A stretch of DNA of 64,000 nt, from NCBI GenBank assembly GCA_964489835.1, contig CAZBBC010000008.1:10992-74991 (forward strand), in the 5' to 3' direction. This document shows positions 48,594 through 64,000 of the stretch, piece after piece. Below the pieces are notes generated by a model that had not been told where the DNA came from, made no database searches, and saw only the letters and a list, made by a program, of their open reading frames with translations. The DNA is from an uncultured Calditrichota bacterium (GTDB lineage: Bacteria > Calditrichota > Calditrichia > JAJRVZ01). Position 1 is the first letter of the stretch, and each line of letters starts with the position of its first letter. A program made the translations under genes and the position numbers.

Positions 48594-49244
48594 TTATTTT
48601 AATAGTAGAGCCAGATTGACCACATCATCGGCCTGGGTGGGAAGTTGCGTTTGTTCACCTTCATCGGTTTCTAAATAGGTATTTAACTGATGGGTCCAGT
48701 TAACCAGGAGACCAAATTCAGGTAATCCGACAAAATCCAACTGCCTCTGGATGGAGACTTCTATACCATTGACAAAACCTGTGCCCAAATTTTGCATCTG
48801 TGTTACCTGATCCACCTTGAAACCATTAAATTCCCTGTCAGCTGGGGCAAAAGAAATTTCCTGTTGTACATTCGAAAGCGTCTTATTGAAATAGCCGACA
48901 GACATATGGGCGGCCAGACTGGGCGCATAATGTTCCAGGATGATGTCAAAATTTGTGGCTCGTGTTGGATCCAAATCAGAATTACCGGTCATAGTCAGTC
49001 AGATTATAAAATGAATAATAAGCCTTTAGGTTGAATTTGTAACCTAAAGATGGTTTGTATAAGATGGCGTATTGACGCCACCTTTAAATTCTTCGGTTTC
49101 AGTTGGTGCATCACGATAGTATCGACGACCTACATCGATCGGATTTCCATTGATATCGACATAGGACTCTTCTAGTTCATCATCTTCCCAATTCCAGTCA
49201 TTTCGCTTATCTCTTTCCGAGAATGACGATAACAACACCGTCAT
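48594..49244 (-). pseudogene. Fragments of a TonB-dependent-receptor-like beta-barrel (two short ORFs, probably a decayed gene).
   Basis: 48594..48992 translates to alternating beta-strand sequence (GFKVDQVTQMQNLGTGFVNGIEVSIQRQL...GLLVNWTH) without plug or N-terminus. 49044..49244 is a second short fragment. No signal peptide. Confidence 0.35.
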
Positions 49245-49411: not shown

Positions 49412-50587
49412 TCAATTAAGTGTCACTAAATGCATTAAAGTGTAATCACCCCCACTGGTATCATCGCGGTATATTTCAACCTTTACTTCATCATCGCCGG
49501 TGATAATTCTCAAAAAAGTACTTCTGGCAAGATTGGCGTTAACCCGGAAGGTCTTTTGGTAACTCTCCCGTAAAGCCTCATTCTCAGTAAATTGTTTATA
49601 ATATATGGAAAGGATATCCAAGGCCGTTTTATCATCAATTTTTTTATAAGAAATTCCGTTGGTCAGATCGGTATAATAGAGGATCTTCTTGGCCTCATAG
49701 GCATTTTCTTCAAAGTAGGCGGCAATCGATTTTTCTTCCCCCAACCCTTTTATTCTTCCGTACTCAATTTTTTCCGATATTCCCTTGATAATTAGTGATG
49801 GAATGGTTGCCTCGAGCCCCCGGGCATGCCCGACATCTATCTGCCAGAGACCATTAATTTTTGCAACAGAGGCATTGTGTGTATGTCCGCAAAAATAGGC
49901 TTTCACCTTGAATTGACGAAGTAACTGGTGAAATCGAAAGCTACTTTTTGGATATTTATCCAGTGAATCCCCCTGGTGCCGGATGCGTCCATTATCGATA
50001 TCCGGTATAGCCACCAGCGGTTCATGACCAAAAATAAAGATATATTTCTTTTTGTTGATCGTTAAATCTTCCTTCAGCCATTTCATTAATTCGGGCACGA
50101 TCTCACCATCAGTTCCTTTATCCGACTGCCCATCATAATATTGATTAAGAACAATAAAGTGATTATCTCCCCAATCAAAAGAATAGGTTGTCTCCTCACA
50201 ACCGGGAGGACCTTTCCGCACGATATTTGGAAGAGATGTACCGCCTTCATTATAAGCACGCAGGTATTCTAGATCAGCGTCCGGTTCCAATTCATGATTT
50301 CCAACTACCGGATACCAGGGATATGTTTCACCTAAGACAAGTGAAATAACTTCCCGTATGGCGTACGGTGGATCAATATCTCCCGGGCTTACCATAAAGG
50401 CTCCTTTACCCGCTTTTTTTATCGCTTCACAGGCGCCAAGGAAATATTGTGATGTTCGATATTCCGGCATTGCTTTTTCGCGCATATCTGCGGCAACGAT
50501 AAAGGTAAACTCACCGTCATTCTTTTCGCAGCAGTGCGCAAAAAACACACATGATAGTAGTAGTAATAATAATACTCTTTTCTTCAT
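49412..50587 (-). CDS. Calcineurin-like metallophosphoesterase, lipoprotein. Start at MKKRVLLLL; the track ORF extends to 50659.
   Basis: Signal/lipobox LLLLSCVFFAHCC. GNHE and GHTHN metallophosphatase motifs. Confidence 0.75.
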   Translation of the reverse strand: MKKRVLLLLLLSCVFFAHCCEKNDGEFTFIVAADMREKAMPEYRTSQYFLGACEAIKKAGKGAFMVSPGDIDPPYAIREVISLVLGETYPWYPVVGNHELEPDADLEYLRAYNEGGTSLPNIVRKGPPGCEETTYSFDWGDNHFIVLNQYYDGQSDKGTDGEIVPELMKWLKEDLTINKKKYIFIFGHEPLVAIPDIDNGRIRHQGDSLDKYPKSSFRFHQLLRQFKVKAYFCGHTHNASVAKINGLWQIDVGHARGLEATIPSLIIKGISEKIEYGRIKGLGEEKSIAAYFEENAYEAKKILYYTDLTNGISYKKIDDKTALDILSIYYKQFTENEALRESYQKTFRVNANLARSTFLRIITGDDEVKVEIYRDDTSGGDYTLMHLVTLN

Positions 50588-50620
50588 CTCCCACCTAATA
50601 TTTAGTATTAACCCAGTGAA

Positions 50621-51010
50621 TTTATAAACCACAGAGGACACGAAGGAAGCAAATAACAATATTTAAACCATTCAATCATTTTAATAATCATTTTCTGATT
50701 ATGTCCTTAACTCCACAAAAATCCTATAGATTGCTTTCCGCCTCAGCGGATCAGCCGAGGCTGACGCTAACGTTCGCAATGACGATAATGAGTTGGTCAG
50801 TGCGAATCTCGAATAGTGAATATTTGGCCTGTCATCTGGGAAGGACCTTCTTATGTGATCGTATCATACCGACACTTTAAAAGATCCCTACGGGATGACA
50901 GGAATGCTTTCACATGTGGCGTTTCACGTCTGACGTTTGACGTCTCACTATAAATTTAATTATTCAATATTCTTTCTTTTCTTCGTGAACTTCGTGCACT
51001 TCGTGGTTGC
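50621..51010. repeat. About 390-bp composite MITE-like element with terminal inverted repeats.
   Basis: Left end tttataaaccacagaggacacgaaggaagc. Right end cttcgtgaacttcgtgcacttcgtggttgc (inverted). The interior carries family E modules (gtcatctgggaagg ... gggatgacaggaatg) and gtttcacgtctgacgtttgacgtctcac. Confidence 0.65.
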
Positions 51011-51895
51011 TTATCGCTTATAATTCTTTTTAATAAATGCTTCGACCTCCTCCATTTTCCTGAGAATGGGTCCTTCGGCCTCCATTTTCAGACTGGTGAC
51101 AGCAGCTGACCAGATAATCGCTTCTTCGGGTGGTGCCGTCAGACGTTTTGCCATATAGGAAGCGATACAGGTGTCACCTCTGCCGCTGCGGCCGACCATT
51201 TCTGCTGGTAAAAATGGCGCTTCAAAATATCGCCCCCCGGCAAAGACAAGAAGCCCATCACGGTGTGTGAGAACAATTTCCTTTGGACCCCACCCCTCTA
51301 AAATCTGTGCCGCTTTGCGAATATCTTTCTCCCCTGTCAGAAATGCTGCTTCCACCGCATCTGCTTTAAAAACATCAATTAATCCCAGCACCTGTTTCTT
51401 CTCAGGCCAGGGTGCATGAATCAGTCGATTGTCCCAATTAATGATTCTGACAAATCCCTGTGCATCGGCGACAAGATAACCGCTTTTAATACGCAGGAAT
51501 TCAACGACTTTTAAAGGGACTTCGTCACGGATCGAGGCATTGATCAGGAAAGCTTTTGCCTGAATTTTTTCAAACTGATCTACGGTATAGGAACCAGCAG
51601 TAACAGGGCATGTGAGAATACGCTCGTCCACATTTTCCGTAGGATATTCGAGTCGCATATGTGTCGAAGATGGTGTTACCACAGGATATACATCAACACC
51701 GATGGCTATAAGTTTATCTACCACATGTTTGTCGTCCTGTGCCAGCCGGGTGACGGCTGCCACTTTAAGACCTGATATGACCGCGGCATGGGCGCCATAA
51801 TTAAATCCGCCGCCATCGACATACCTTGTTCCTGCTGCCGATACGATTGTATCCTTCGTATAATTACCCAGTATTACTATATCGTACACACTCAT
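51011..51895 (-). CDS. PfkB-family carbohydrate kinase.
   Basis: Ribokinase-like fold: N-terminal IVILGNYTKDTIV and C-terminal ATP-site GRSGRGDTCIASYMA (the DTxGAGD-type motif). Confidence 0.8.
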   Translation of the reverse strand: MSVYDIVILGNYTKDTIVSAAGTRYVDGGGFNYGAHAAVISGLKVAAVTRLAQDDKHVVDKLIAIGVDVYPVVTPSSTHMRLEYPTENVDERILTCPVTAGSYTVDQFEKIQAKAFLINASIRDEVPLKVVEFLRIKSGYLVADAQGFVRIINWDNRLIHAPWPEKKQVLGLIDVFKADAVEAAFLTGEKDIRKAAQILEGWGPKEIVLTHRDGLLVFAGGRYFEAPFLPAEMVGRSGRGDTCIASYMAKRLTAPPEEAIIWSAAVTSLKMEAEGPILRKMEEVEAFIKKNYKR

Positions 51896-51913
51896 TTCAG
51901 TCTCCGTATATAA

Positions 51914-53251
51914 TTAGTCCATGATCTTGGCACGCCATAACGTACTGGCTAAAATTAATGATACTATCGAACCGCCAATCCAGAATAAAATGGCATTCGT
52001 AAAATCATAATGGCGTACACCATCGACCATTGTGGTCCCCTGTCCAATCAGGTAACCACTGATCTGATCCTGCACCCCGGCTGCAAGATAACTGAAAACC
52101 CCGATAAATCCCATGGCGGCACCGGCTGCATTTTTAGGCGAAATATCGATGGCGAACAACCCTCCCAAGGCCGCCAGCAAACCGCTGAGCATAAAACCAT
52201 ATAGAAAAAAGGCAGATGTTAGTAATACCGGTTGTCCCGGTGCCGCGAAAAAGATGACCAGAAGGGCGATGATCTCAAGAATTCCAAATATGAGTGTCAC
52301 CGGTGGGCGTTTGGCTTTAAATAGTTTATCGGAGATATATCCATAGGCGACACAACCGATCAGACCGGCAAATGTATTCAGCCCAAGAATACTACCAGCT
52401 TCAATTAAGGTATAACCCTTAGCCTCCTGGAGATAGAGAATGCCCCAGCTGTTTATGGCATACCGGGTGACGTATATCGTGGCACTTGATAATCCCAATA
52501 TCCAAATAGTTGGTCTTTTTAAAATTGACAGCTGTGCCTGCCAAGTTTTTTCTTCTTTTTTCTCTTCACCGTGGTCATTTTTCCAGTCTGCAATAGTCGG
52601 TAAACCCATGGTCCTTGGTCTGTCCTGTACCAGCAGATAAATAGCGAGAGCAACAAAAATGCATAGTACACCGGGGCCCCAGAAACCGGCCTGCCAGCCA
52701 AAGAAACTGACCAGGGCACCTGATCCAACAAATGTCAAACCTTCTCCAATAGCATGACCGGTACTCCAAAGACCATAAAACCTGCCCCGTTCTTTATTAC
52801 TAAACCACTGAGAAAGGGCTACCGCTCCTGTCGGTGCTCCATAACCCTGAAACCAACCATTAAAACACCAGAGAACCACCCATATCCAGAGCACATCCGT
52901 TCTTCCCATAAGCAGATTTACGAATGCCGAGAAAAGTACTCCAAATGCAAAAAATCTTTTTATATTGGCATGATCCGCTAAGAAACCGTTGGTTAATTTT
53001 CCGAAAGCATATCCATAGAATAAGGCAGATCCAATCAATCCAAGATCCTCTGCCGACATAATACCTCCATCGATCAAAGGTTTCTTGACAACAGAAAGAG
53101 CCAGACGACAGGTATAGGCAATACCATAGCCCACTGTTATCGCCATCATCACCCTGAATCGATGTTTTCTGTAAAGATGATCGACTTCTTTTTGATCCTC
53201 GATTACTGGTTTATCTTCCCCGGTGGTAAAAAAGTGCAAAATTCTGTTCAT
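51914..53251 (-). CDS. MFS transporter (organophosphate:Pi antiporter / sugar-acid type).
   Basis: 12 TM. MFS loop motifs GKLTNGFLADHANIKRF and GRFYGLWSTGHAIG. Confidence 0.75.
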   Translation of the reverse strand: MNRILHFFTTGEDKPVIEDQKEVDHLYRKHRFRVMMAITVGYGIAYTCRLALSVVKKPLIDGGIMSAEDLGLIGSALFYGYAFGKLTNGFLADHANIKRFFAFGVLFSAFVNLLMGRTDVLWIWVVLWCFNGWFQGYGAPTGAVALSQWFSNKERGRFYGLWSTGHAIGEGLTFVGSGALVSFFGWQAGFWGPGVLCIFVALAIYLLVQDRPRTMGLPTIADWKNDHGEEKKEEKTWQAQLSILKRPTIWILGLSSATIYVTRYAINSWGILYLQEAKGYTLIEAGSILGLNTFAGLIGCVAYGYISDKLFKAKRPPVTLIFGILEIIALLVIFFAAPGQPVLLTSAFFLYGFMLSGLLAALGGLFAIDISPKNAAGAAMGFIGVFSYLAAGVQDQISGYLIGQGTTMVDGVRHYDFTNAILFWIGGSIVSLILASTLWRAKIMD

Positions 53252-53294
53252 CAGCGTTCCTTCTAACGGGTGAGTTAGAATTTACAGAGATAAT

Positions 53295-53375
53295 AGATCC
53301 ACGGATTATCCGTCGCAGCCGGATCCCGTCATAGCCACGTCTGCGCCGCGCCTGCCGCGTCGTAGACCCTTTTTG
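53295..53375. repeat. Partial family A repeat plus GC-rich word.
   Basis: gatccacggattatccgtcgcagccggatcc, and cgtctgcgccgcgcctgccgcgtcgtagaccc (matches 22751 and inverted 49290-49315). Confidence 0.65.
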
Positions 53376-53408
53376 ACACTACCTCGGATTAAAATAACTT
53401 ACAAAGAC

Positions 53409-54452
53409 TTAGGGTTTCAATACTATTTTCATCGCCTTTTTTGGAATTGGTTTGAGCGTTTTCAGATCCAGGCCCAATTTCTCAAAAGCATTAACGCCTT
53501 CTTCAATACCAAGAGTCTCAGTAAAAAATGGACGAAGGTCTAATTTTCCGGCCCGAAATATTTTTATTGCCGGTAAACAGGTGTTCTGGCCAATATAAGT
53601 ACCCAAGATCTTAATCGCTTTTCGAGTAACCGTATTCGGAACCAGCGTTGCCTGGGCACTGGTGTCCATTCCAAAGGCCAGTATCTTGCCCCCCGGGGTA
53701 ACATAATTGATCGCATTCTCTAGCTGCGTACCGACCGCATCAATAACGATATCGGCTTTTTCACCTTTTGTAAATTCCAGAACAGATTCCTCTATATCAC
53801 ATTCATTGGGATTGAAGACAGGAAGACCCAACTGTTTTGCCACTTCAATTCGAAACGGATCAATTTCGGTTACCGCTGCCTGGGCAGCAACATGTTTTGC
53901 CAATGCAGAAAATAAATAGCCGATGGGCCCACAGCCTAAAATTAATACTGAATCCCAAGGCTGCATCTGTACCGTATTCATACCGTTTAACACGGTTCCC
54001 AAGGTCTCCACCTGAGTACCAACAATGTCATCAATTTCCTCAGGTAATTTATAACAGGCATTTTCAGGCACAACACAGTAATCCGCATAACCGCCATTTT
54101 GAAAAATACCTACGGATTTGTCTTTCAACCACACACACTGGCTGCTAAAACCCATACGACAGGCATCGCACAACCCACAACGAAGACTGTTATCTATAGC
54201 TACCCGATCTCCCACTTTGAGTGTGGTTACTCCTGTACCAACATCCTCCACGCTACCATTGAATTCATGGCCTAAAACCGTATTTTCTTTATAGGCATGT
54301 TTACCTTGTAATATTTTTACATCCGTACCACAAATTCCACAAGCGGCAACTTTTATCAATACTTCATTGGCTTGCGCAACTTCCGGAACAGGAATTTGCT
54401 CCATGCCAATTTTGCCAATATTCCTGAAAACCAGTGCTTTCATTGTACTCAT
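53409..54452 (-). CDS. Zinc-dependent alcohol/polyol dehydrogenase (MDR family).
   Basis: Catalytic Zn CGICGTD...GHEFNG, structural Zn CGLCDACRMGFSSQC, and Rossmann LILGCGPIG. Confidence 0.85.
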   Translation of the reverse strand: MSTMKALVFRNIGKIGMEQIPVPEVAQANEVLIKVAACGICGTDVKILQGKHAYKENTVLGHEFNGSVEDVGTGVTTLKVGDRVAIDNSLRCGLCDACRMGFSSQCVWLKDKSVGIFQNGGYADYCVVPENACYKLPEEIDDIVGTQVETLGTVLNGMNTVQMQPWDSVLILGCGPIGYLFSALAKHVAAQAAVTEIDPFRIEVAKQLGLPVFNPNECDIEESVLEFTKGEKADIVIDAVGTQLENAINYVTPGGKILAFGMDTSAQATLVPNTVTRKAIKILGTYIGQNTCLPAIKIFRAGKLDLRPFFTETLGIEEGVNAFEKLGLDLKTLKPIPKKAMKIVLKP

Positions 54453-54507
54453 TTATTCCTCCAGAATTAAACTTTTAAAATATCTATATGCATAATTAGC
54501 CTAACCT

Positions 54508-54700
54508 ATTCATACCGCAGCATATTGCTGCAATCAAAGAAAAAAATAGTCCACGGATTATCCGTCTACGCCGGATCAGGCGAAGACTGACACGAATTAG
54601 CACGGATTAAAACTAAAATAATATTAATTTTTATTTAAAATCTGTGTCAATCCGTGAAATCTGTGGATAAAAAACGCTGCGCCGCTTTGAGAGACGAATT
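54508..54700. repeat. Family A repeat element (inverted orientation) plus adjacent CGTG-dyad module.
   Basis: 54508-54615 is the reverse complement of 33131-33236 (cataccgcagcatattgctgcaatcaaag...gtccacggattatccgtctacgccggatcaggcgaagactgacacgaattagcacggattaaaac), followed by tctgtgtcaatccgtgaaatctgtggat. Confidence 0.85.
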
Positions 54701-54719
54701 GACCGAATTTGTAAATTAT

Positions 54720-57572
54720 TCACCTCTCCTGCTGATACGATTGATTCAATAGTACAATCGGATGGATGGTATCAATCCCGGTTCCCTTGGTGAGCTGTAT
54801 CTGACAGGTACCACACCCCGATACCAGCGTATCCGGTTTTACTTCATTAATTTGTGAAAATAAAGGTTGACCCATCTTCATGGAAATTTCATAGTTTTCT
54901 TTTTTCATGCCATAAGTTCCGGCAATACCACAACAGCTATCTTCTACATCGATAATATTCAGAGCAGGGATTAATTTTAGCAGATCAATGGGCCCATACT
55001 CATTTTGCTGGGATTTCAGGTGACACGGTTCATGGTAAACAATTCTTGAGTTCAGTGGAGCGAATTTTCCGGTAAATTCCCCCTGATGATAAGCTTTCAT
55101 CAAAAAATCATGGATATCAACCGATTCTGCGGCAATGGTCCGGAGATCTTTATCATTCGGAAAATAATTATCGTATTCTTTCATAAAGGCATAACCGCAG
55201 GAGGCGCTTGAAAAGATGACAGGTATCTTCTTTTTTGCTAATGGAAGCAGTATTCTGATATTGTAGTCAATATCAGATCGGGCTCCGCTGATATTTCCAT
55301 AAGAGATTTTAGCAATATTACAACAACGCCAGGAGGGAATAATTACCTTATAACCGAGTTTCTGCAATAGTTGGACAGTTTGCTGATGTTCTCCTTCCGG
55401 ATCACTATACTGGGCGGAACAGCCACTCCATAAGACAACATTCTTGCCATTCCCGGCTTGAAATTTCTCCATTCGTGTTGTCCCGACCGAAAATCTTGAA
55501 AAAAGTGGAAAATCCCGTCGTTTATCAATTCCGGCAATTTTTTCCATTAGGCATCGAATCAATCGAAAGCGTAACACACGGTTACTCAAAGGAGCGGTTA
55601 ATGCGGCAATCTTGCTGACAATTTTCCCATTCTGCAGTAATTTTTCGTTTATTTTAAAGGGTCGTTTTTGATGTAATTTCTCTTTTGCTGCTATCGCCAT
55701 TCCCGGTATATCAACGCTGGTCGGACAATCAGTCAGGCATTGTCCGCAATTCAAACAGTAATCCATAATTGTAAAGAAGTGATCGGTGTCGATAGCGTTT
55801 AGAGCGGTCTTTCCGGATATGATTCCACGTAAAATATTTGCTTTTGCCCGAGCCGTTGCTTCCTCCTCACCGGTTGCAACAAAAACCGGACAATATTCAC
55901 GGCAGGTCCCGCAACCATGACATTTTTCAATTTCTGAACGCCATTTATCCTCATCAAGACGGGAGTCGGTATCAATATATTCATCCGATGGCGAATAACG
56001 CCAATCGGCATTCCATTTTATTGGTTCCCTGGGTACAATAATATCCGGATTCATAATGCGCGAAGGATCAAAAATATCTTTAATTTCCCTAAATAGCGGC
56101 ATTAATTCCGGGAATCGTTTGGGAAGAAAGGGCGAGCGAAGCCGCCCGTCACCGTGCTCTCCGGTTAGGCTGCCGTTATATTGAATAACCAGATCGACAA
56201 ATTCATCCATAAATTTTTCGATCAGCACCATCGTTTTTTCGTCTTTTATATCAATCAAAGGGCGTAAATGAAGGTTTCCATCGCCGGCATGTCCATAGAT
56301 AACATACTTAAAGTCGAATTTTTTCAGCAAAGAACCGGCGTCACGTAAAAAATCAGGAAAAACATCCGGATGAATCGCGGTATCTTCTACAAATGGAATC
56401 GGTTTATTTTTTCCGTTAATTTTGTTCAGAATAATGGTGGCTGCTTTCCGCAGGGTGAAAATTTTTTCAATTTCAGATTCATTGGTCGAATAGGCACCTT
56501 TCTGTCCAAGTTCCCGTTGATTCACAATCTCGTTAATCGCCTTTTGAAAAGAGTCATGAATGGATTCAACCGTTGTCCCTTCAAATTCAACAAAAAGTAA
56601 ATAACGTACACCACTGGGTAAAAATTTACTGAGGTCGGGTTGATATTCGAGGGCAAGCACCATAAACGACTGGTCGACAAACTCTATGGCTGAGGCACCC
56701 AAACGTCGTAAAACCTGAACCGCCTTACCCATATCCTCAAGTTCAGAGAAATAAAGAGAAATGATACCTCTCTCCGGTTTCAGGGGAATGATATTCAATA
56801 GAGCTTCGGTAAAAACTCCCAAAGTACCCTCACTGCCAACAAACAGTGAGGCCATATTCAACCGTTCTGTTGTAAGAATATCCCATACCTGATACCCTGA
56901 GGCACTTTTTGTTACCCGGGGACGACTGTTTTTAATTCTATGGGCATAGTTTTTGAAAAGTTCATGAATTTTTTCATAATAGGGCCGGTGAAAGTCATCC
57001 AACCCGGCAATATCTGTGATCGCTATATTTTTAGCCCGAAACAATTTGCCATTGGCCAAAATAACCGACACCTCATCGACATGTTTGTACATACTACCAT
57101 GAAGAATCGTGTGCGGTCCGCCGCTGTTGTTACCTAACATTCCGCCAATCACACAGATATTGCCGCTACTGGGATCCGGGCCGAACTTACACCCTTTTTC
57201 CTTTATAGCTTTCTGTAACTGGTTTAATACAACCCCAACCCCCACCCTGGCCTGGCTGTCAGAGAGGATATCAATGCATTGAAAATGATGAGTTAAATCC
57301 AGAATTACTGCTCTTCCCACGGCATTACCGGCCAGACTGGATCCGGCACCTCTGGGCAAAACGGGAATATTATAAGTCTGGCAGATATTGACCGCCTGAA
57401 CAATATCATCCACTGTTTCCGGTATCATCACCGCCAATGGTGTGATATCATAGATGCAGGCCGCCGTACTATACAGTTGTAAGGTGACCGGATCCCAGCG
57501 AACTTTAGCGTTCAGATTTTCCCTAAAAGCTCTCTGCCAATCTTCCAGAGGATCTTGTATTTGAATCAACAT
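54720..57572 (-). CDS. Large FAD-binding oxidoreductase fused to a 4Fe-4S ferredoxin and tandem CCG (cysteine-rich) domains (YdiJ / GlcD-GlcF-fusion type).
   Basis: FAD PCMH domain (PRGAGSSLAGNAVG). Fe-S motifs CHGCGTCREYCP and CLNCGQCLTDCP. C-terminal CCG-type cysteine clusters (WSGCSAQY..., HEPCHLK...DSCCGIAGTYG). 950 aa. Confidence 0.8.
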   Translation of the reverse strand: MLIQIQDPLEDWQRAFRENLNAKVRWDPVTLQLYSTAACIYDITPLAVMIPETVDDIVQAVNICQTYNIPVLPRGAGSSLAGNAVGRAVILDLTHHFQCIDILSDSQARVGVGVVLNQLQKAIKEKGCKFGPDPSSGNICVIGGMLGNNSGGPHTILHGSMYKHVDEVSVILANGKLFRAKNIAITDIAGLDDFHRPYYEKIHELFKNYAHRIKNSRPRVTKSASGYQVWDILTTERLNMASLFVGSEGTLGVFTEALLNIIPLKPERGIISLYFSELEDMGKAVQVLRRLGASAIEFVDQSFMVLALEYQPDLSKFLPSGVRYLLFVEFEGTTVESIHDSFQKAINEIVNQRELGQKGAYSTNESEIEKIFTLRKAATIILNKINGKNKPIPFVEDTAIHPDVFPDFLRDAGSLLKKFDFKYVIYGHAGDGNLHLRPLIDIKDEKTMVLIEKFMDEFVDLVIQYNGSLTGEHGDGRLRSPFLPKRFPELMPLFREIKDIFDPSRIMNPDIIVPREPIKWNADWRYSPSDEYIDTDSRLDEDKWRSEIEKCHGCGTCREYCPVFVATGEEEATARAKANILRGIISGKTALNAIDTDHFFTIMDYCLNCGQCLTDCPTSVDIPGMAIAAKEKLHQKRPFKINEKLLQNGKIVSKIAALTAPLSNRVLRFRLIRCLMEKIAGIDKRRDFPLFSRFSVGTTRMEKFQAGNGKNVVLWSGCSAQYSDPEGEHQQTVQLLQKLGYKVIIPSWRCCNIAKISYGNISGARSDIDYNIRILLPLAKKKIPVIFSSASCGYAFMKEYDNYFPNDKDLRTIAAESVDIHDFLMKAYHQGEFTGKFAPLNSRIVYHEPCHLKSQQNEYGPIDLLKLIPALNIIDVEDSCCGIAGTYGMKKENYEISMKMGQPLFSQINEVKPDTLVSGCGTCQIQLTKGTGIDTIHPIVLLNQSYQQER

Positions 57573-57677
57573 ATCGTTTTTATTTCTTCCAGAGTGGATT
57601 TGAACCCGACTTCTATTTTCAATGGATATTTATTATACTTCTCTTTGCCTTTATCTGTTCTAAAAATCATCCGGGTG

Positions 57678-58643
57678 TTATGGATTAGGCTTCGACGTAT
57701 TATCCACATTTTCTTTAGTGACTAAATCGATGCCAACCGGGATTTCTTCCGGTATACTTTTTCCCTGTATTAGTTGAATCGCATTATTCATGGCAATTTT
57801 TCCCATGATATATGAGTGTTGGGCAATTGACCCTTGCATTTTTCCCTCCCGGATAGCATCTCGTGCATCCTTCAGGGCATCAAATCCAACAACGATGATC
57901 TCCCCGGTTTTTCCGGCAGCGGAAATAGCTTCAACAGCACCGAGGGCCATCAGATCACTACAGGCGAAAAGAGCCTGAACTCCTGGATATGACTGCATCA
58001 TATTTTGAAAAACATTAAATCCCTGATCTCTCTCCCAGTTGGCCGTCTGTGAGGTTAAAATTTGAATCTCCGGTTGTGAATCGAGGGCTTTACGAAATCC
58101 ACGTATTCTTGCATCACCGGTTTCGTGTCCCGGAATACCTTCCAAAATAGCCACGTTTCCCTTTCCATTGAGCAGACTCTTTATATATTCACCGGCAATC
58201 CGACCACCCTCATAATTATCAGATCCGATAAAAGTGGCAATTTGACCGCCGGATTCCGCTAATGCCACAGAATCTACACGGGTATCAATAATAATAACCG
58301 GTATATTTGCCCGGTTTGCTTTCAAAATAGCCGGTATAATTTCCTTTGAGCCACTCGGCGTTACACAAAGTACATCCACACGGGTCTGAATCAGATTCTC
58401 AACGATTTGCATTTGTTTTTCAACATCAACTTCCCGTTCAGCCGCCTGAAGGATCAGGTTGATGCCCAATTCTTTTGCCTGATATTCAGCGCCACTCTGC
58501 ATATCGATAAAATAAGGATTATTAAGCGTCTTCATGACCAGGGCTACGGTTGGTCCGCTTAGTACTGATTTTTCTCCTCTCTGGCAGGCTATGATTGAAA
58601 ATACGAAAAGTATTAGCACAAACAGACATTTGATGTGTTTCAT
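57678..58643 (-). CDS. Sugar ABC transporter periplasmic substrate-binding lipoprotein (RbsB-like). Start at MKHIKCLFVL; the track ORF extends to 58796.
   Basis: Signal/lipobox FSIIAC. TVALVMKTLNNPYFIDMQSGAEYQAKELGINL matches periplasmic-binding-protein type I (ribose/xylose family). Confidence 0.8.
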   Translation of the reverse strand: MKHIKCLFVLILFVFSIIACQRGEKSVLSGPTVALVMKTLNNPYFIDMQSGAEYQAKELGINLILQAAEREVDVEKQMQIVENLIQTRVDVLCVTPSGSKEIIPAILKANRANIPVIIIDTRVDSVALAESGGQIATFIGSDNYEGGRIAGEYIKSLLNGKGNVAILEGIPGHETGDARIRGFRKALDSQPEIQILTSQTANWERDQGFNVFQNMMQSYPGVQALFACSDLMALGAVEAISAAGKTGEIIVVGFDALKDARDAIREGKMQGSIAQHSYIMGKIAMNNAIQLIQGKSIPEEIPVGIDLVTKENVDNTSKPNP

Positions 58644-58764
58644 CGCTTTTAAACTCCATAGTTGATTATTATTTTGACAGGATAAGAGGAATACTCTCTT
58701 GCTGCCGATATTTCGGGAAAATCTTACAGATACATATGTAATAAACCGAAAATATTCATCTTGC

Positions 58765-58890
58765 AGAGACACGGAGACGCAGCGTTTTTTGTCCACGGAT
58801 TATCCGGCTTCGACGAAAAATCTGTTAATCAATTCGTGAAATTCGTGGATATATTTCTCTGCGGCTTTGCGGCTCTGCGAGAGATAGTAT
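58765..58890. repeat. Partial family A repeat (inverted) with CGTG dyad.
   Basis: cacggagacgcagcgttttttgtccacggattatccggcttcgacgaaaaatctgttaatcaattcgtgaaattcgtggat. The first part also resembles 36075 (cggagacgctgagacgc). Confidence 0.7.
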
Positions 58891-58971
58891 ATATCATAAA
58901 GTTTAGTGCCATTGGAAAAATTTTGCTTTATGTATTCTGTTTATCTTGTCTAATTTTTTTCTTATCAAAAT

Positions 58972-59919
58972 CTAACTTCTCTGCTTTTTGAGTGCCATAT
59001 CAACCAGCACGGCGATAATTATCACTGAACCTATGACTGTTTGCTGAACAAAAGAAGAAACGCCCAGTAAATTCAATCCATTTCGGAGTACTCCCATGAT
59101 CAACGCACCGATCAATGTTCCGAGGATCCTTCCTTCTCCACCCATCAAACTCGTTCCACCTATCACGGTCGCTGCAATGGCATCAAGTTCATACATAATG
59201 CCGGCGATTGGCTGGGCGGAATTCAACCGGGCGGTTAATATAATGGCGGCGACACCACTGAGCAGCCCGCACATACCATAAACCACTGTCTTATATAATT
59301 TTACATTTATGCCTGAAAGGGTCGCTGCTTCTTCATTACCGCCCATGGCATAGGTATATCGACCCAACTTAGTATGTGAAAGCACAAAATAGCCAATAAG
59401 ATAGACAACACCCATAATAATGACAGGCATGGGGATGCTTAATATCTCACCTGTTGCTAGAAAACGAAAATCTTCCGAAAATCCGGAAATCGGTCTTCCT
59501 TCTGTATACAATAATGCCGCTCCCCGGGCGACACTCATCATCCCTAATGTTGAGATAAATGGTGGTAAATTACCGTAAGTGATCAGGACTCCGTTTACTA
59601 CCCCGCATAACAAGCCGATCCCTAATCCAAGGAGTAAAGCCAAAGGAAGAGGTATTCCGGCATTCAAGGCACTTGCCAGAACAACACCGGCGAAGGCCAT
59701 TATCGATCCAACGGACAGATCAATACCAGCCGCAATAATGACGAAAGTCATTCCTACGGCAATAATGGCATTTATCGATGTTTGCTGGGTGATATTCAAA
59801 AGATTAGAAATGGTTAAAAAATGTGGCGTCATGATCCAGAGGATAATACATAAGATCAACAGGCCAATCAACGTTCCGAATTGTCGTGCATTGTGTAACA
59901 AAAAATCTCTATATCGCAT
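58972..59919 (-). CDS. Sugar ABC transporter permease (RbsC-like).
   Basis: 10 TM, typical branched-chain/ribose-type permease. 1-nt gap to the ATPase. Confidence 0.85.
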   Translation of the reverse strand: MRYRDFLLHNARQFGTLIGLLILCIILWIMTPHFLTISNLLNITQQTSINAIIAVGMTFVIIAAGIDLSVGSIMAFAGVVLASALNAGIPLPLALLLGLGIGLLCGVVNGVLITYGNLPPFISTLGMMSVARGAALLYTEGRPISGFSEDFRFLATGEILSIPMPVIIMGVVYLIGYFVLSHTKLGRYTYAMGGNEEAATLSGINVKLYKTVVYGMCGLLSGVAAIILTARLNSAQPIAGIMYELDAIAATVIGGTSLMGGEGRILGTLIGALIMGVLRNGLNLLGVSSFVQQTVIGSVIIIAVLVDMALKKQRS

Positions 59920-59920
59920 A

Positions 59921-61414
59921 TTAAGCCGCTCCTAACGCACTATGAAGAATTTTTTCCTGCGACGCCTCAGCAGAGAGATACTCATCAACAATTTTCCCTT
60001 CATGCATCACAAGGATTCGGTCACTCATTCCCAGAATCTCAGGCAAATCCGACGAAATCATCAGTATAGCGGCACCTTCAGCCGTCAAAGTGTTCATCAG
60101 CTGATAGATTTCCACCTTGGAACCGACATCAATCCCGCGGGTCGGTTCATCAAAAATGAGTATATCCGCCTTTGAGCAGAGCCATTTACTCATCACCACT
60201 TTTTGTTGATTACCACCACTTAAATACATTACTTTTTGATCCGGACCGGGTGTTTTGATCCTTAACTCGTTAATATATTTTTTTGCGGCTTCACGCTCTT
60301 TTTTACTTTCAACAATACCAAATCGGGAGAATCTTTCGACACTGGGTAAACAAACATTTTCCTTTAAAGAAAGGTTCAGCACAAGCCCTTGCTTCTTTCG
60401 ATCCTCTGTCAGATAACCGATCTTTAAATTAATCGCCTTACGGGGAGAAGTAATTTTCTGTGCTTTACCCTCCACATATATTTTACCAGAGTCGATTCTG
60501 TCAGCACCAAATATGGCACGGGCTAATTCCGTTCGGCCGGAACCAAGAAGACCGGCAATCCCTAATATCTCACCCTTATACAGGCAAAAACTAATATTTT
60601 TTAATCTTTTATGGGTACAAATATCTTCAACATGAAGGATTTCTTCACCTCTGGTAACGGCTTGTCGCGGATACTGTTCCTTTAACTCCCTGTTGACCAT
60701 CATCCGGATCAATTCCGCTTCAGTGACTTCAGAAATCAGATGGGTTGAAACATAATGTCCGTCGCGCAGTACCGTTACCCTGTCCCCGATTTCGAACAAC
60801 TCTTCCAGGCGATGGGAGATATAAATAATTGAAACACCTTTTTCTTTGAGTCGCCGGATAGTGGTGAAAAGTTCTTTAATTTCATTTTCACTCAGGGCAG
60901 AGGTTGGTTCATCCATGATCAATATATTGGCATTGAGAGACAGGGCCTTGGCCACTTCAACCATCTGTTGCTGGGCAATACCCAGCGTGTTGATGGTACT
61001 TTTTGGATCGATCTTGATACCAAGATCATCCAATATTTTCATGGCCTCAGTATTCATTTTCTTCTCATTAATAATCCCTGTCAACCAGTAAAACTCACGA
61101 CCAAGAAAAATATTCTCTGATACCGTCAGGTGAGGGATCAGATTAAACTCCTGATATATAATCCCTATACCTAATTGCTGGGCATGTCTGGGACTTTTTA
61201 CCTCTATTTTTTCACCATGCAGGGATATTTCACCGCTTGTTTTTTGATAGGCTCCGCTTAAAATTTTAACCAGTGTTGATTTTCCGGCACCGTTCTCACC
61301 AAGCAGGATATGTACCTCACCCCTTGTTAAATCAAAATTTACATTATCAAGGGCTACCACTCCGGGAAATGTTTTCCGGATATGGCGCATTTTTAGAACA
61401 TTTTCACTTTTCAT
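59921..61414 (-). CDS. Sugar ABC transporter ATP-binding protein (duplicated NBD, RbsA-like).
   Basis: Two Walker A motifs (GENGAGKST; second degenerate), LSGGNQQKV signature, two Walker B. 497 aa. Confidence 0.9.
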   Translation of the reverse strand: MKSENVLKMRHIRKTFPGVVALDNVNFDLTRGEVHILLGENGAGKSTLVKILSGAYQKTSGEISLHGEKIEVKSPRHAQQLGIGIIYQEFNLIPHLTVSENIFLGREFYWLTGIINEKKMNTEAMKILDDLGIKIDPKSTINTLGIAQQQMVEVAKALSLNANILIMDEPTSALSENEIKELFTTIRRLKEKGVSIIYISHRLEELFEIGDRVTVLRDGHYVSTHLISEVTEAELIRMMVNRELKEQYPRQAVTRGEEILHVEDICTHKRLKNISFCLYKGEILGIAGLLGSGRTELARAIFGADRIDSGKIYVEGKAQKITSPRKAINLKIGYLTEDRKKQGLVLNLSLKENVCLPSVERFSRFGIVESKKEREAAKKYINELRIKTPGPDQKVMYLSGGNQQKVVMSKWLCSKADILIFDEPTRGIDVGSKVEIYQLMNTLTAEGAAILMISSDLPEILGMSDRILVMHEGKIVDEYLSAEASQEKILHSALGAA

Positions 61415-61480
61415 TCGATAAAATTTGTGAGATTATATGTTATTCTAACCAAAAACTTTGTTATTTCCGCCCCAGCGATT

Positions 61481-61870
61481 AGCAAAAATTTTAAAAACTT
61501 TTATCCACGGATTTCACGGATTTTATTTAGCCTGAATTATTCATAAAATTAAATATTTAAGTCTATAAATAACCTAAAATCAATGAGTTAATTCCCCCTT
61601 AATAAAGGGGGTTAGGGGGATGTTTTAAACGTAATATTTTAAATTATATCAATGTTTTACAACCCCTTAGTCCCCTTTTTTTTAAGGGAAGACTTAATTG
61701 TCGCTATATGATAGATCTAAAATTCATGAATTAATCAGGTTAGAAATAATATTTATTTTAATTTTAATCCGTGCAAATCAGTGTCAGCCAATCACTTGAT
61801 CCGGCTTCGACGGATAATCCGTGGACAAAATCTTTTTTTTATCGCAGCATCGCTGCGTTATGTATTTATC
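61481..61870. repeat. Mosaic of all three repeat families in one spacer.
   Basis: ttatccacggatttcacggatt (CGTG dyad). aattcccccttaataaagggggttagggggat (family C). ttttaagggaagacttaattgtcgctatatgatagatctaaaattcatgaatta (family C module). 61762-61868 is a full family A copy (ttttaatccgtgcaaatcagtgtcagcc...cgacggataatccgtggacaaaatcttttttttatcgcagcatcgctgcgttatg). Confidence 0.85.
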
Positions 61871-61884
61871 AGGGTAATCCGGGG

Positions 61885-62694
61885 TCATCTTCGCCCGACA
61901 ATTTTTCTCATATTCTTAATCGTTTCCACTGCCGCAGTGTCAGAATCCGGATAAGGCAAAATCTCAGCTGAGACAAATCCGGTATAATTGATTTTTTCGA
62001 GACTATCGATAACGTTTTTAAAATCAATATGGCCGGCACCAGGATACCACCGGTTAGAATCGGCAATATGAAAATGGAAGAGATGCTTTTTAGCGGCAAT
62101 GATACTTTCGGTGATTGAGGGCTCTTCAATATTCATATGAAACGTATCGAGCAGAAGACCAACATTCTTCATATTTACTTTTTCTAGTATGCGCATACCA
62201 TCACCGACCGTATTGATCAGATTCGTTTCATACCGGTTAATTGGTTCAATGGCCAGCGGTACCGACGCATTTTCATCGGCACATTCCTGTAAAGCCTCTA
62301 TCAGCCAGGTTTCAGCCCGCTGATTTTCTGTTTCGGGCGTTCTTGTTCCGCGGATAAGCCCGATAATGACGGTGGTCTTTAGCAGATCTGCCAAATGCAC
62401 CTGTGATTTGATACGGTTAATCGCTTTTGTCCTAATATTGACATCCGCGTTTGTGAAGGACAATCCTTCTTCACCATAGGCCTGGCCGGTTCCCAGGGCC
62501 GGAACCGGCAGATCATTCACTGAGAGTAATGACTGTAATTCTTTTAAATTCAGAGATTCGGGATCACGTACGGCTAGTTCCACACCATCATAGCCCAGAT
62601 CTTTAATTTTCTTTATATTTTCAGCCATCTGGCCTTTGTAGGCTAAAGCGGAAAAGGATGCCGGTTGTACCGATAGGACAATACTCAATTTCAA
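61885..62694 (-). CDS. Sugar phosphate isomerase/epimerase (xylose-isomerase-like TIM barrel).
   Basis: 269 aa. LGYDGVEL..., metal-binding HxD...E...H...D...E pattern (VGLLLDTFHMNIEE, HFHIADSNR). Confidence 0.75.
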   Translation of the reverse strand: MKLSIVLSVQPASFSALAYKGQMAENIKKIKDLGYDGVELAVRDPESLNLKELQSLLSVNDLPVPALGTGQAYGEEGLSFTNADVNIRTKAINRIKSQVHLADLLKTTVIIGLIRGTRTPETENQRAETWLIEALQECADENASVPLAIEPINRYETNLINTVGDGMRILEKVNMKNVGLLLDTFHMNIEEPSITESIIAAKKHLFHFHIADSNRWYPGAGHIDFKNVIDSLEKINYTGFVSAEILPYPDSDTAAVETIKNMRKIVGRR

Positions 62695-62697
62695 CAG

Positions 62698-63792
62698 TTA
62701 TAGCCCCATTTTGTTGATCGCATATATCGGACGCCAACCTTTTGTAAAAGGTTCTTTCATAAAAGGTTCCATTTCAGATTCGGTTCTCATCGTCGTTTTT
62801 TCAATAGGAGGTACTTTACCGGCCGGGAATGCTTCCAATATTTCGTCATGCACCAGTGTTAAATAAGATAAAATCGCTGCAATCGTCCGTCTTGCTTTTT
62901 TCGCATCTCCAAGGGTTGGACGTCCCACAACCCCTTCCGGTATGGATCCCATCTCTGTAGGAAAATGACCCTGGCCTTCTGACCATTTACTGGGACGGGC
63001 AAAGGGATCCACGGCTTTGTCAAAATGTCCGTCGGGCAGATATCCCTCGACCTTTGTCTCTTCAGCGTGGTGCATCTCTACAAATTGGGGACCAAGCAGC
63101 AACATTACCGAGGTTTCGGCCTCATCGGCATGAACAAAATTATCATCCCAATCACCACCCCGGTCCTTGGTACGGAAAAATTCCCGAACAGCCCGATGCC
63201 AGTCGATGACACGAAAAATTCCCGGTAAATTCCATGTTTTTTGAAGCTCCTGAATCGCGGCCTCCAACAACCATTGATGTCCGTGATTGTTGATAAGGAT
63301 CATCTTCCGGAAACCATCATTCCAGAATCCTACCATAACATCAATAAGGATACGTTTGAGAACTTCATCTTCAATATGAATGGTCCCGGGCATACCGATA
63401 TGGTGATGCGGATGTCCGCCAAAATTAAGTGGTGTCCAGGTCAGATTAACCGCATTACCACGTTTTGCCGTAAATCGGCGCACACCCTCAAGAATTTGAG
63501 TGACCATGAAAGTATCAAGAGCCGTTACCGTATGCAAGCCGTGTAATTCGGTACAACCCACCGGAATAAATAATATATCGTTCCTTTTTCTGTTCTCGAC
63601 GACTTGATGCCGAATGGTGGTTTGTATATATGTACCCGGATTTCCAAGTTCCGGGGGGCTGGGGATTCCATAATCAGCGAGTATTTTCGTAATTTCATCC
63701 TCCGATGCTTCCCATATCTTCTTTTTTAAACGACCCACCGTTGTATCTTCAAAAAAAAGATCTTCCCGGTTTGTTTTTAACCACTTCTCCAT
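62698..63792 (-). CDS. Creatininase-family amidohydrolase.
   Basis: ILFIPVGCTELHGLH, NFGGHPHHHIGMPGTIHI, ILINNHGHQ and HADEAETSVML parallel the creatininase motifs (PVGxxEQHGPH, VNGHGGN, HAGExETS). Family assignment from memory. Confidence 0.55.
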   Translation of the reverse strand: MEKWLKTNREDLFFEDTTVGRLKKKIWEASEDEITKILADYGIPSPPELGNPGTYIQTTIRHQVVENRKRNDILFIPVGCTELHGLHTVTALDTFMVTQILEGVRRFTAKRGNAVNLTWTPLNFGGHPHHHIGMPGTIHIEDEVLKRILIDVMVGFWNDGFRKMILINNHGHQWLLEAAIQELQKTWNLPGIFRVIDWHRAVREFFRTKDRGGDWDDNFVHADEAETSVMLLLGPQFVEMHHAEETKVEGYLPDGHFDKAVDPFARPSKWSEGQGHFPTEMGSIPEGVVGRPTLGDAKKARRTIAAILSYLTLVHDEILEAFPAGKVPPIEKTTMRTESEMEPFMKEPFTKGWRPIYAINKMGL

Positions 63793-63830
63793 CGTTTTCC
63801 TCCGCTATTTTATTATTGACTTGATCTATT

Positions 63831-64000
63831 TATAAACCACGAAGCACACTAAGGACACGAAGTTAAAAAACAATTAAGAATTTAGAATTATAAATTTGAA
63901 CAAGAAGTAATAGGCGCTAACGTTATGTCATTAATATCTTCACATTCTTAATTCGTAATTTTTAATTCTTAATTTCGAGAAGACCTTCGTGTGCTTCGTG
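63831..64000. repeat. MITE-like element with CACGAAG terminal inverted repeats (may continue past window end).
   Basis: tataaaccacgaagcacactaaggacacgaagtt ... AT-rich interior ... gaagaccttcgtgtgcttcgtg. Left end is near-identical to 50621-50650. Confidence 0.75.

Follow-up and report, generated by a model that had tools for sequence, protein, structure and literature searches.

We analysed a 64,000-nucleotide stretch of DNA from an uncultured Calditrichia bacterium (contig CAZBBC010000008.1, positions 10,992 to 74,991; hereafter the window) and found that the minus-strand genes close to its end most probably form the distal part of a large locus for the utilisation of inositol and inositol phosphates, with ring cleavage of the Thermotoga type; we place the probability of this reading at about 0.8. 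It is carried by two predicted enzymes of the ring-cleavage pathway, IolN and IolO, by a kinase homologous to TM0415 of the Thermotoga maritima inositol operon, and by the co-inheritance of these genes with others in many relatives. From that synteny we infer that the window contains the visible two-thirds of a conserved cluster, the upstream third lying out of view, and that the ancestral locus ran past a phosphoesterase gene into genes for a TonB-dependent receptor and a beta-propeller phytase, which have decayed here. An initial annotation of the same DNA had regarded the substrate as unknown; with IolN and IolO scoring above their cutoffs and the kinase being a TM0415 homologue, the substrate is inositol, and the core of the pathway is already known.

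Predicted inositol pathway enzymes

Positions 51011-63792 hold nine intact open reading frames (ORFs) in the ORF listing of the window, all on the minus strand. The initial annotation described their content correctly, as their Pfam domains are exactly those it had named: PfkB; MFS_1; ADH_N with ADH_zinc_N; FAD_binding_4, FAD-oxidase_C, Fer4 and CCG; Peripla_BP_4; BPD_transp_2; two ABC_tran domains; AP_endonuc_2; and Creatininase. A tenth gene, on the same strand at 49412-50584, encodes a phosphoesterase and belongs to the locus, the order kinase then phosphoesterase being found in relatives as well.

The protein of creatininase fold (Pfam Creatininase; 62698-63792, minus strand, 364 amino acids (aa)) scored 315 bits against the NCBIfam equivalog NF041098 (cutoff 245), covering profile positions 6-306 of 307. 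It is at least 79% identical to the best 120 database homologues, several of which are named 3-dehydro-scyllo-inosose hydrolase by NCBI. Three nucleotides (nt) separate it from the gene of a TIM-barrel protein (61885-62694, minus strand, 269 aa) that scored 362 bits over its full length against the equivalog NF041099 (cutoff 300). These scores predict that the first protein is IolN, the 3-dehydro-scyllo-inosose (diketo-inositol) hydrolase, and the second IolO, the 5-keto-L-gluconate 4-epimerase, whose product is D-tagaturonate. Both steps are reportedly part of the inositol pathway of T. maritima described by Rodionova et al. in 2013 (Environ Microbiol 15:2254).

Conserved gene order in relatives

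An IolN profile scan of species-representative genomes yielded 80 loci (denoted by L numbers), which were analysed by tblastn and ORF clustering. Their hosts belong to Calditrichia, KSB1, Ignavibacteria/Melioribacteraceae, Neomarinimicrobiota/Fidelibacterota, Bacteroidota, Acidobacteriota and a few Firmicutes. The conserved order is regulator, IolG, IolM, IolN, IolO, ATP-binding cassette (ABC) importer, FAD/Fe-S enzyme, second Zn-dependent alcohol dehydrogenase (Zn-ADH, here ADH347), GlpT-like transporter of the major facilitator superfamily (MFS), pyrophosphate (PPi)-dependent kinase, phosphoesterase, TonB receptor and beta-propeller phytase. IolN being present in all 80, IolO was found in 73 (each time next after IolN), IolM in 71, the regulator in 58, a Gfo/Idh/MocA protein in 52, the ABC ATPase in 44, the MFS protein in 32, ADH347 in 30, the kinase in 26, the phosphoesterase in 15, the FAD/Fe-S enzyme in 13, the TonB receptor and the phytase in 10 each, an LctD-like protein in 5 and UxaE in 4.

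The closest relative, L001, is a contig of a Calditrichia metagenome-assembled genome (MAG) with ~95% nucleotide identity to the window and an identical gene order, which ends 86 nt upstream of IolN. In another Calditrichia locus, L004, a regulator with a GntR-type helix-turn-helix (HTH) and a sugar-binding domain is followed by IolG, IolM, IolN, IolO and the ABC genes through to the kinase, the spacers measuring 13-52 nt. L170 (Melioribacteraceae) and L171 (Ignavibacteriales) carry the full locus followed by phosphoesterase gene(s), TonB receptor and beta-propeller phytase, L170 also encoding UxaE; in L087, as in L170 and L171, the phytase behind the TonB receptor is intact. A Pfam check in relatives supported the calls for phytase (384 and 158 bits), TonB receptor and UxaE (509 bits). 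These data demonstrate that the genes are a co-inherited unit and not a chance juxtaposition. The proposal of a single polyol catabolic locus in the initial annotation is thereby upheld: it had named co-occurrence in relatives as the check and loss of synteny as the refutation, and the genes are syntenic.

IolG (the Gfo/Idh/MocA-type myo-inositol 2-dehydrogenase) and IolM (the scyllo-inosose 3-dehydrogenase, a Zn-ADH of ~390 aa) are not encoded within the 64-kb window, tblastn of which detected no homologue of either, nor a GntR-type regulator. The window ends 208 nt upstream of IolN. IolM, a protein of 395 aa in relatives, is the immediate upstream neighbour of IolN in every one of the 74 loci whose upstream DNA is long enough (median gap ~26 nt, maximum 358 nt), and in L004 the true IolM scored 492 bits (cutoff 450) and IolG 336 bits against TIGR04380 (cutoff 355). 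Judged by synteny, IolG, IolM and the GntR-HTH/sugar-binding regulator should lie just beyond base 64000. The lack of a regulator gene noted in the initial annotation is thus true of the window, but is probably an effect of where the window ends, since relatives have a regulator upstream of IolN.

Predicted TM0415-type kinase, organophosphate antiporter and secreted phosphoesterase

The PfkB-family protein (51011-51895, minus strand, 294 aa) scored only 45 bits against Pfam PfkB, yet matched the TM0415 crystal structures (PDB 5YSP and 1VK4) with an E-value of 2e-39 and 34% identity to TM0415. TM0415 is encoded within the T. maritima iol operon and is PPi-dependent (Nagata et al. 2018, PMC5931981); the determinants of the PPi donor are K171, F221, R229, R232 and M266 together with an RXGRGD motif (PMC5931981). 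All five residues are kept in the window kinase, as K177, F228, R236, R239 and M271, and so are the motif (R236-S-G-R-G-D241, RSGRGD) and the catalytic Asp. In the acceptor pocket, D11, Q141 and R145 of TM0415 are kept as D15, Q146 and R150, but the pocket differs from the myo-inositol pocket of TM0415 by N78L, S89L, L116S and I76M, the first three of which recur in homologue No. 49 of Levilinea saccharolytica. These features predict that the protein is a TM0415-type PPi-dependent kinase.

Next to it, the MFS gene (51914-53251, minus strand, 445 aa) encodes a protein of the organophosphate:phosphate antiporter (OPA) type. Its best PDB match was GlpT (1PW4, 185 bits), and the substrate-site residues R45, K80, H165 and R269 of GlpT are kept as R49, K85, H166 and R263, so that the GlpT-like fold and the paired Arg, Lys and His typical of the OPA family are all found. 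It scored 280 bits against the UhpC model (cutoff 564) and 238 against the GlpT model (cutoff 633), and was under the cutoff of every named equivalog; from its context, we predict that its ligand is an inositol phosphate. The MFS gene lies within two genes of the kinase gene in 24 of the 26 loci with the kinase, and no cytoplasmic phosphatase is conserved in the locus. The Km of TM0415 for inositol is 12 mM (PMC5931981) and free inositol does not support growth of T. maritima (PMC3750489), both of which fit a phosphorylated physiological substrate. Together with the constant pairing of kinase and antiporter and the lack of a conserved cytoplasmic phosphatase, these values favour the PPi-forming direction of the kinase, although they do not prove it.

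The phosphoesterase (49412-50584, minus strand, 390 aa) is predicted to be a secreted, calcineurin-like enzyme with a lipoprotein-type signal, in line with Metallophos calls in relatives. The listed ORF was too long, and the start was moved to 50584 by comparison with L001. Weak PDB matches to purple acid phosphatases (E-value 1e-4) indicate a distant likeness, and no NCBIfam model matched. Its gene follows that of the kinase in 15 loci.

The ABC importer

Three minus-strand genes encode an ABC importer of the CUT2 family: an RbsA-type ATPase with two ABC_tran domains (59921-61414, 497 aa), an RbsC-type permease (58972-59919, 315 aa), identified by its BPD_transp_2 domain and by synteny, and an RbsB-like lipoprotein solute-binding protein with a Peripla_BP_4 domain (57678-58643, 321 aa), which we propose as an inositol binder. 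The listed ORF of the last extends to 58796, the extra part being read-through of a repeat; its start was moved to 58643 by comparison with L001, whose gene has the same length of 321 aa, and the protein then begins with the lipoprotein signal MKHIKCLFVLILFVFSIIAC. None of the three reached the cutoff of the corresponding ribose equivalog (RbsB, 223 bits against 337; RbsC, 350 against 398; RbsA, 601 against 745), and the ATPase was below the cutoff of every named sugar ATPase model. The best PDB match of the binding protein was 2IOY (238 bits). Four of the ten residues that contact ribose in the E. coli protein are changed, namely F15Y, R90T with a 7-aa insertion, F164W and N190S. We rejected identification of the system as a ribose importer, as the scores are under the cutoffs and the ligand site is altered.

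The flavo-iron-sulfur dehydrogenase

The largest gene of the locus (54720-57572, minus strand) encodes a 950-aa flavo-iron-sulfur dehydrogenase whose Pfam domains and PDB matches give it a YdiJ/Dld-II architecture: a VAO-type FAD domain of the D-2-hydroxyacid dehydrogenase class (FAD_binding_4 and FAD-oxidase_C, 120 and 181 bits), two [4Fe-4S] motifs and a CCG domain. For the N-terminal half the nearest solved structures are glycolate oxidase (9QGZ), LctD (7QH2), mouse LDHD and human D2HGDH. The motifs GH428AGDGNLH435 and E472-H-G-D-G and the residue R375 align with 9QGZ, 7QH2_C, 8JDC and 6LPN, and provide the His-His-Glu metal site and the carboxylate-binding Arg, roles that we presume from the LDHD and D2HGDH structures. 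In a comparison with R386, T390 and K401 of D2HGDH, made as a guide to the substrate, R375 and T379 align, and K401 falls at an insertion. The protein reached 358 bits against the YdiJ equivalog NF049975 (cutoff 1350), over residues 33-583 only, and cannot be called YdiJ. The C-terminal half is a GlpC/GlcF-type Fe-S and CCG module and passed the GlpC model (309 bits, cutoff 278) in that half only; with GlpA and GlpB missing and an FAD domain of the VAO type, the protein does not correspond to GlpABC. A homologue with 61% identity carries the source name 'homolog of lactate dehydrogenase SO1521'.

Contexts of the flavoenzyme were also sought from the flavoenzyme itself, which avoids the bias of the IolN-anchored set. 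Eight of ten independent contexts (51-95% identity) adjoin iol-cluster genes: L001, L002, L087, L170, L171 and L172 at 59-95% identity, and L167 and L173 at 51-52%. Relatives with at least 59% identity were within iol loci in six of seven independent look-ups, whereas a metagenome profile scan used as negative control yielded mostly relatives of at most 35% identity, and none of ~78 loci with such relatives had iol neighbours. The flavoenzyme forms a clade of its own (56-95% identity) embedded in iol loci. In the Marinimicrobia-type loci L052, L060, L067, L070 and L071 (also L037 and L076), its place between the ABC binding protein and the regulator is taken by EtfB-EtfA and an LctD-like flavoprotein that matches Acetobacterium 7QH2_C with 376 bits. 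The exchange resembles a non-orthologous replacement and is an argument for a flavoprotein activity like that of lactate dehydrogenase being part of the pathway.

The second Zn-dependent dehydrogenase

ADH347 (53409-54452, minus strand, 347 aa; ADH_N and ADH_zinc_N) is a medium-chain dehydrogenase that scored 183 bits against the IolM model (cutoff 450) and 184 bits against the Tdh model. With such a score and only 28% identity to IolM proper in relatives (395 aa), it was rejected as IolM. Of 32 loci, 22 have ADH347 as the labelled gene ahead of the MFS gene and 8 have a Gfo/Idh/MocA paralogue there, and this exchange points to a second cyclitol dehydrogenase as its most likely identity, a keto-sugar-acid dehydrogenase/reductase being the alternative. 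ADH347, the flavoenzyme, the MFS protein and the phosphoesterase are all conserved members of the locus, with putative roles only.

Variants among the related loci

Eight loci (L020, L021, L023, L030, L036, L046, L047 and L049) are without the upstream IolG and without ADH347, and have two Gfo/Idh/MocA paralogues between the ABC binding protein and the MFS gene. A small secreted family of ~250 aa with no Pfam match occurs in L015, L027, L060, L067 and L070, after IolO and before ADH347 or the ABC genes. Downstream in L167, L173, L025 and L042 lies a conserved module, absent from the window, that encodes UxaE, a short-chain dehydrogenase/reductase (SDR), 6-phosphogluconate dehydrogenase (6PGD), a homologue of the LarA-like nickel-pincer racemase/epimerase, a second PfkB kinase (360 aa) and a HAD hydrolase. 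This content hints that some lineages may route tagaturonate via fructuronate, mannonate and gluconate to 6-phosphogluconate.

Selection and decay of the locus

Comparison of the eleven genes shared with L001 gave ratios of nonsynonymous to synonymous divergence (dN/dS) of 0.04-0.19 (0.07 for IolN), that is, purifying selection, and these genes are thus maintained. Synonymous divergence (dS) from L001 is a mosaic, 0.09-0.17 from IolN through the flavoenzyme and 0.26-0.39 from ADH347 through a NIPSNAP gene, which suggests recombination within the locus between close lineages.

The TonB-dependent receptor survives as pseudogene remnants (48606-49228, minus strand). In tblastn, the intact 918-aa receptor of L001 matched at aa 324-383 and 683-810 only, and blastn against L001 revealed three deletions of 1690, 889 and 615 nt; a 132-aa ORF at 48594-48992 is a fragment of this receptor. 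Of the beta-propeller phytase, the C-terminal 39 codons remain (47600-47716, minus strand), with 56% identity to aa 331-369 of the L030 phytase (tblastn, E-value 1e-9), between the NIPSNAP and acyl-CoA synthetase genes. With these remnants on one side and selection on the shared genes on the other, direct acquisition of phytate has probably been lost, uptake and catabolism being kept.

The NIPSNAP-domain protein, encoded at 47750-48565 between the receptor and phytase remnants, has a twin-arginine-like signal (MKRRNFLLSLGTAAV), and its gene accompanies the locus in L001 and L009 too. Farther downstream, positions 34621-47277 hold housekeeping or unrelated genes, which mark the boundary of the locus: those for acyl-CoA synthetase, DUF4416, an AIR-synthase-like protein, CstA, an ArsA-like ATPase, PlsY, GpsA, Usp, FBPase and a class II aminoacyl-tRNA synthetase.

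Repeats in the spacers

The initial annotation had placed miniature inverted-repeat transposable elements (MITEs) in every spacer. Copies or fragments of repeats lie in four of the eight junctions between the nine genes (53252-53408, 54453-54719, 58644-58971 and 61415-61884); the other four are without them, three being 1, 3 and 18 nt long, with no room for an element, and 57573-57677 consisting of unique sequence common to L001. Family A (~130 nt) has three copies, at 33123-33253, at 54492-54622 in the spacer between the flavoenzyme and ADH347 (plus strand, 89% identical to the first copy and 77% to the third) and at 61744-61878, and fragments at 53298-53325 and 58787-58806. Family B (~215 nt) has two to three copies in 64 kb, that at 61527-61742 being 74% identical to 27242-27452; repeat comparison showed that it forms, with the third copy of family A, a minus-strand composite (61527-61878) in the spacer between IolO and the ATPase. 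Five copies of the core 16-mer GTCCACGGATTATCCG were counted in the window, where 0.43 would be expected.

The window and L001 aligned collinearly, with every break in a spacer. Unaligned sequence amounts to 435 nt in the window against 94 nt in L001 between IolO and the ATPase, 222 against 119 between the flavoenzyme and ADH347, 195 against 64 between the kinase and the phosphoesterase, and 124 against 3 between ADH347 and the MFS gene. The last difference is a clean indel, an insertion of ~121 nt relative to L001 (53279-53402) with the core 16-mer at 53297. The spacer at 50585-51010 is 131 nt longer than in L001 and contains three copies of the heptamer-like CTTCGTG and no copy of a repeat family. 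Families A and B share with MITEs that their copies are dispersed and insertion-polymorphic between close relatives; no clear terminal inverted repeats or target-site duplications were seen at the clean indel 53279-53402, and the sole palindrome seen is a short internal one, CGGATTATCCG, in the repeat core. The repeats are thus lineage-specific, dispersed and insertion-polymorphic, and the defensible wording is 'MITE-like repeats in about half of the spacers'. They account for the appearance of many transcription units here, as opposed to a compact operon in relatives, and for the breaks of related MAG contigs just upstream of IolN.

The palindromic core CGGATTATCCG was considered as the operator of a regulator and rejected, because the core motif occurs in no other iol locus (1.26 Mb) but the 95% identical L001, and lies within 116-131-nt repeats that are found outside the locus too. 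Hairpins of the form CCCCCTT...AAGGGGG make up a third, short type of repeat (18459-18503, 41513-41557 and 61591-61623, the last in the spacer between IolO and the ATPase). Runs of the heptamer-like CTTCGTG/CACGAAG occur upstream of IolN and of the phosphoesterase, at sites that are 74% alike over 47 nt (50962-51008 paired with 63835-63881, and 50601-50647 with 63809-63855).

Rfam searches over the 64 kb returned a tRNA (25101-25174, minus strand) as the sole match, and no RNA family in the spacers. A sigma-70 promoter scan found 43 candidates against 43.5 expected, no excess over chance. Terminator-like hairpins were modestly enriched (28 against 15 expected) and mostly within genes. With promoters at chance level and hairpins mostly inside genes, operon structure cannot be derived from these scans.

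Proposed pathway and alternative readings

In the pathway that we propose, extracytoplasmic phosphoesterases would strip phosphate from phytate-derived inositol phosphates; in relatives this would be done by the phytase and the purple-acid-phosphatase-like enzyme, the latter alone being intact here. Free inositol would enter via the RbsABC-like importer, and inositol monophosphate via the GlpT-like antiporter against phosphate. The kinase would interconvert inositol phosphate plus Pi and inositol plus PPi, most plausibly towards inositol and PPi. Inositol would then be oxidised twice, by IolG and IolM; IolN would open the ring, converting 3-dehydro-scyllo-inosose to 5-keto-L-gluconate, which IolO would epimerise to D-tagaturonate for hexuronate catabolism. 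ADH347 may act as a second cyclitol dehydrogenase or as a keto-sugar-acid dehydrogenase, and the 950-aa protein as a quinone-linked dehydrogenase of the 2-hydroxyacid type.

A tentative extension of this scheme is that ADH347, the antiporter and the PPi-kinase, a conserved trio, serve the energy-conserving entry of inositol phosphate, and that the flavoenzyme, or LctD/EtfAB in its place, catalyses an unrecognised respiratory-linked step of inositol or hexuronate catabolism. Inositol monophosphate would be exchanged for Pi across the membrane and then converted with Pi to inositol and PPi by the TM0415-type enzyme working in reverse. If this is true, the phosphoester bond would be saved as pyrophosphate and not lost to a phosphatase, and the presence of TM0415 in a catabolic operon, its 12 mM Km for inositol and the failure of T. 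maritima to grow on inositol would be explained.

Several points weigh against an inositol phosphate locus of this kind. The enzyme and transporter roles in this locus are all predicted, and so are the direction in which the kinase works and what the MFS protein binds. The binding protein matches binders of ribose (238 bits) and allose (225 bits) better than the inositol binder 4IRX of Caulobacter (97 bits). The flavoenzyme fits no published step of the pathway, and two of its relatives, L088/L169 and L168, are found apart from iol genes. IolN lies 208 nt from the end of the window, compared with a usual IolM-IolN gap of ~26 nt (maximum 358), and IolG, IolM and the regulator may have been rearranged or lost in this genome. 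As the receptor and the phytase are pseudogenes, phytate itself is probably no longer the entry substrate here. Lastly, homologue No. 49 used PPi, made several inositol monophosphates non-specifically, and was judged to have a different true acceptor (PMC5931981).

This conclusion on an enzyme with the same acceptor pocket is what speaks for a rather doubtful alternative, in which the PPi-kinase runs forward on a pathway intermediate (5-keto-L-gluconate, D-tagaturonate or an inosose) and not on inositol. By analogy with Bacillus IolC, it would prepare an aldolase cleavage, and the MFS protein, ADH347 and the flavoenzyme would process the resulting acids, such as tartronate semialdehyde, glycerate or lactate; such a branch would also supply a substrate for a 2-hydroxyacid dehydrogenase. 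However, no aldolase is conserved in ~90 loci, the UxaE, SDR, 6PGD and LarA-like genes of several loci point to a non-phosphorylated route from tagaturonate to fructuronate, and the pairing of the kinase with an organophosphate antiporter better fits a transported phospho-substrate. Utilisation of glycerophosphoinositol, a phospholipid head-group, is unlikely. The phosphoesterase would then be a phosphodiesterase, the MFS protein would import glycerol-3-phosphate, which the 950-aa enzyme would oxidise to dihydroxyacetone phosphate (DHAP) with electrons going to quinone, and inositol would follow the ABC importer and IolGMNO. This would agree with GlpT as the best structural match of the MFS protein, with all four substrate-site residues kept, and with the score of the C-terminal half of the flavoenzyme above the GlpC cutoff; many sources name flavoenzyme homologues 'anaerobic glycerol-3-phosphate dehydrogenase subunit C', and, where enough sequence is visible, the flavoenzyme is found solely in loci that also have the MFS gene. 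Yet the GlpC match is at domain level and common to YdiJ, GlcF and LdhH, and the FAD domain, with its metal triad and Arg, is of the D-lactate/glycolate/D-2-hydroxyglutarate class and not of the GlpA/GlpD type. The full loci, moreover, have phytase and TonB receptor and no GlpQ-type diesterase in their stead, the Marinimicrobia loci have an LctD/EtfAB-type lactate dehydrogenase at the flavoenzyme position, and the PPi-kinase would be left unexplained.

It is quite unlikely that the locus is decaying and no longer functional here, its operon broken up by repeats and possibly with loss of the upstream IolG/IolM/regulator block. In favour of such decay are the remnants of receptor and phytase, the non-coding and repeat-bearing stretch of at least 208 nt where IolM normally ends, and the contigs of two close relatives that break at this same point; all ten remaining genes are nonetheless full length and under purifying selection, L001 keeps an intact receptor, which makes the losses recent and partial, and the contig breaks are an expected assembly effect of repeats. 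That a ribose importer, a D-lactate dehydrogenase, a threonine-dehydrogenase-like ADH, a sugar-phosphate transporter and a sugar kinase stand together by chance is hardly credible. The best generic annotation of each gene alone does point to a different pathway, and long repeat-filled spacers separate the genes here. These spacers, however, are lineage-specific insertions, and synteny contradicts the idea, the same genes occurring in the same order with short spacers in L004 and in at least six phylum-level lineages.

Relation to known systems

The predicted inositol phosphate locus uses the same ring-opening chemistry as the T. maritima operon TM0411-TM0416 (IolR, IolM, IolN, IolG, TM0415 and IolO) with InoEFGK: the relatives have IolG and IolM, a TM0415-type kinase lies inside the locus, and UxaE provides the next step in several loci. 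It differs in its regulator, which in relatives has GntR-HTH and sugar-binding domains in place of the ROK-family IolR of T. maritima (PMC3750489), in its transporters, RbsABC-type and GlpT-like MFS instead of InoEFGK, and in its host, a mesophilic FCB-group bacterium and not Thermotoga. It has as extras the second Zn-ADH, the 950-aa flavo-Fe-S enzyme, the secreted phosphoesterase, the TonB receptor and the phytase. TM0415-group kinases have the five donor residues, the RXGRGD motif, the catalytic Asp and D11/Q141/R145 in common with the window kinase, whose gene is coupled to an organophosphate antiporter, a link unremarked for the characterised enzymes. The pathway of Rodionova et al. 2013 is cited in PMC5931981, PMC12632266 and PMC3750489. 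The initial annotation had called the gene combination not a textbook one; this holds for the YdiJ-type enzyme, but creatininase, TIM barrel and Zn-ADH together are precedented.

With the Bacillus subtilis iolABCDEFGHIJ operon the related loci share a start from inositol by IolG (Gfo/Idh/MocA) and a PfkB-family kinase. Homologues of IolE, IolD, IolB, IolJ and IolA are absent from the window and from the related loci, and the ring would be opened hydrolytically after a second oxidation, leading to a hexuronate and not to DHAP and malonate semialdehyde. The MFS protein resembles E. coli GlpT, UhpT and UhpC in its fold and in the four GlpT site residues, with scores below the equivalogs. E. coli YdiJ (D-2-hydroxyglutarate dehydrogenase) and Shewanella Dld-II SO1521 (D-lactate dehydrogenase) have the same fused architecture as the flavoenzyme, which is nevertheless far under the YdiJ cutoff, and LctBCD of Acetobacterium woodii has its LctD-like and EtfAB counterpart in the Marinimicrobia loci. 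Cassettes of a TonB-dependent receptor and a beta-propeller phytase were reportedly described in aquatic and soil bacteria by Cheng & Lim in 2006 and by Lim et al. in 2007. The same pair adjoins the locus in 10 of the 80 loci and in L170, L171 and L087; it is joined there to a full inositol-ring pathway and inositol phosphate genes, and remains as remnants in the window.

Literature searches on the names IolM, IolN and IolO and on phytase, TonB and inositol catabolism returned no description of the extended locus. As far as the searchable literature shows, the whole locus is an undescribed and widespread variant of the Thermotoga-type system.

Significance

The window itself holds a partly decayed, repeat-invaded copy of the locus, which is the more modest result. 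A major part of the organic phosphorus of soils and sediments is present as phytate and other inositol phosphates, and the consumers of the carbon ring left after removal of the phosphate are poorly known. The locus joins TonB receptor, phytase and secreted phosphatases to the uptake of inositol and inositol phosphates and to full ring cleavage, and, occurring as it does in many uncultured FCB lineages (Calditrichia, KSB1, Ignavibacteria, Marinimicrobia and Bacteroidota), can be used as a genomic marker of the trait. Mesophiles are thereby shown to carry the 'Thermotoga' inositol pathway widely. A clade of YdiJ-like flavo-Fe-S proteins and a second Zn-ADH are singled out as pathway-associated enzymes, and the PPi-dependent inositol kinase gains a concrete, testable physiological context.

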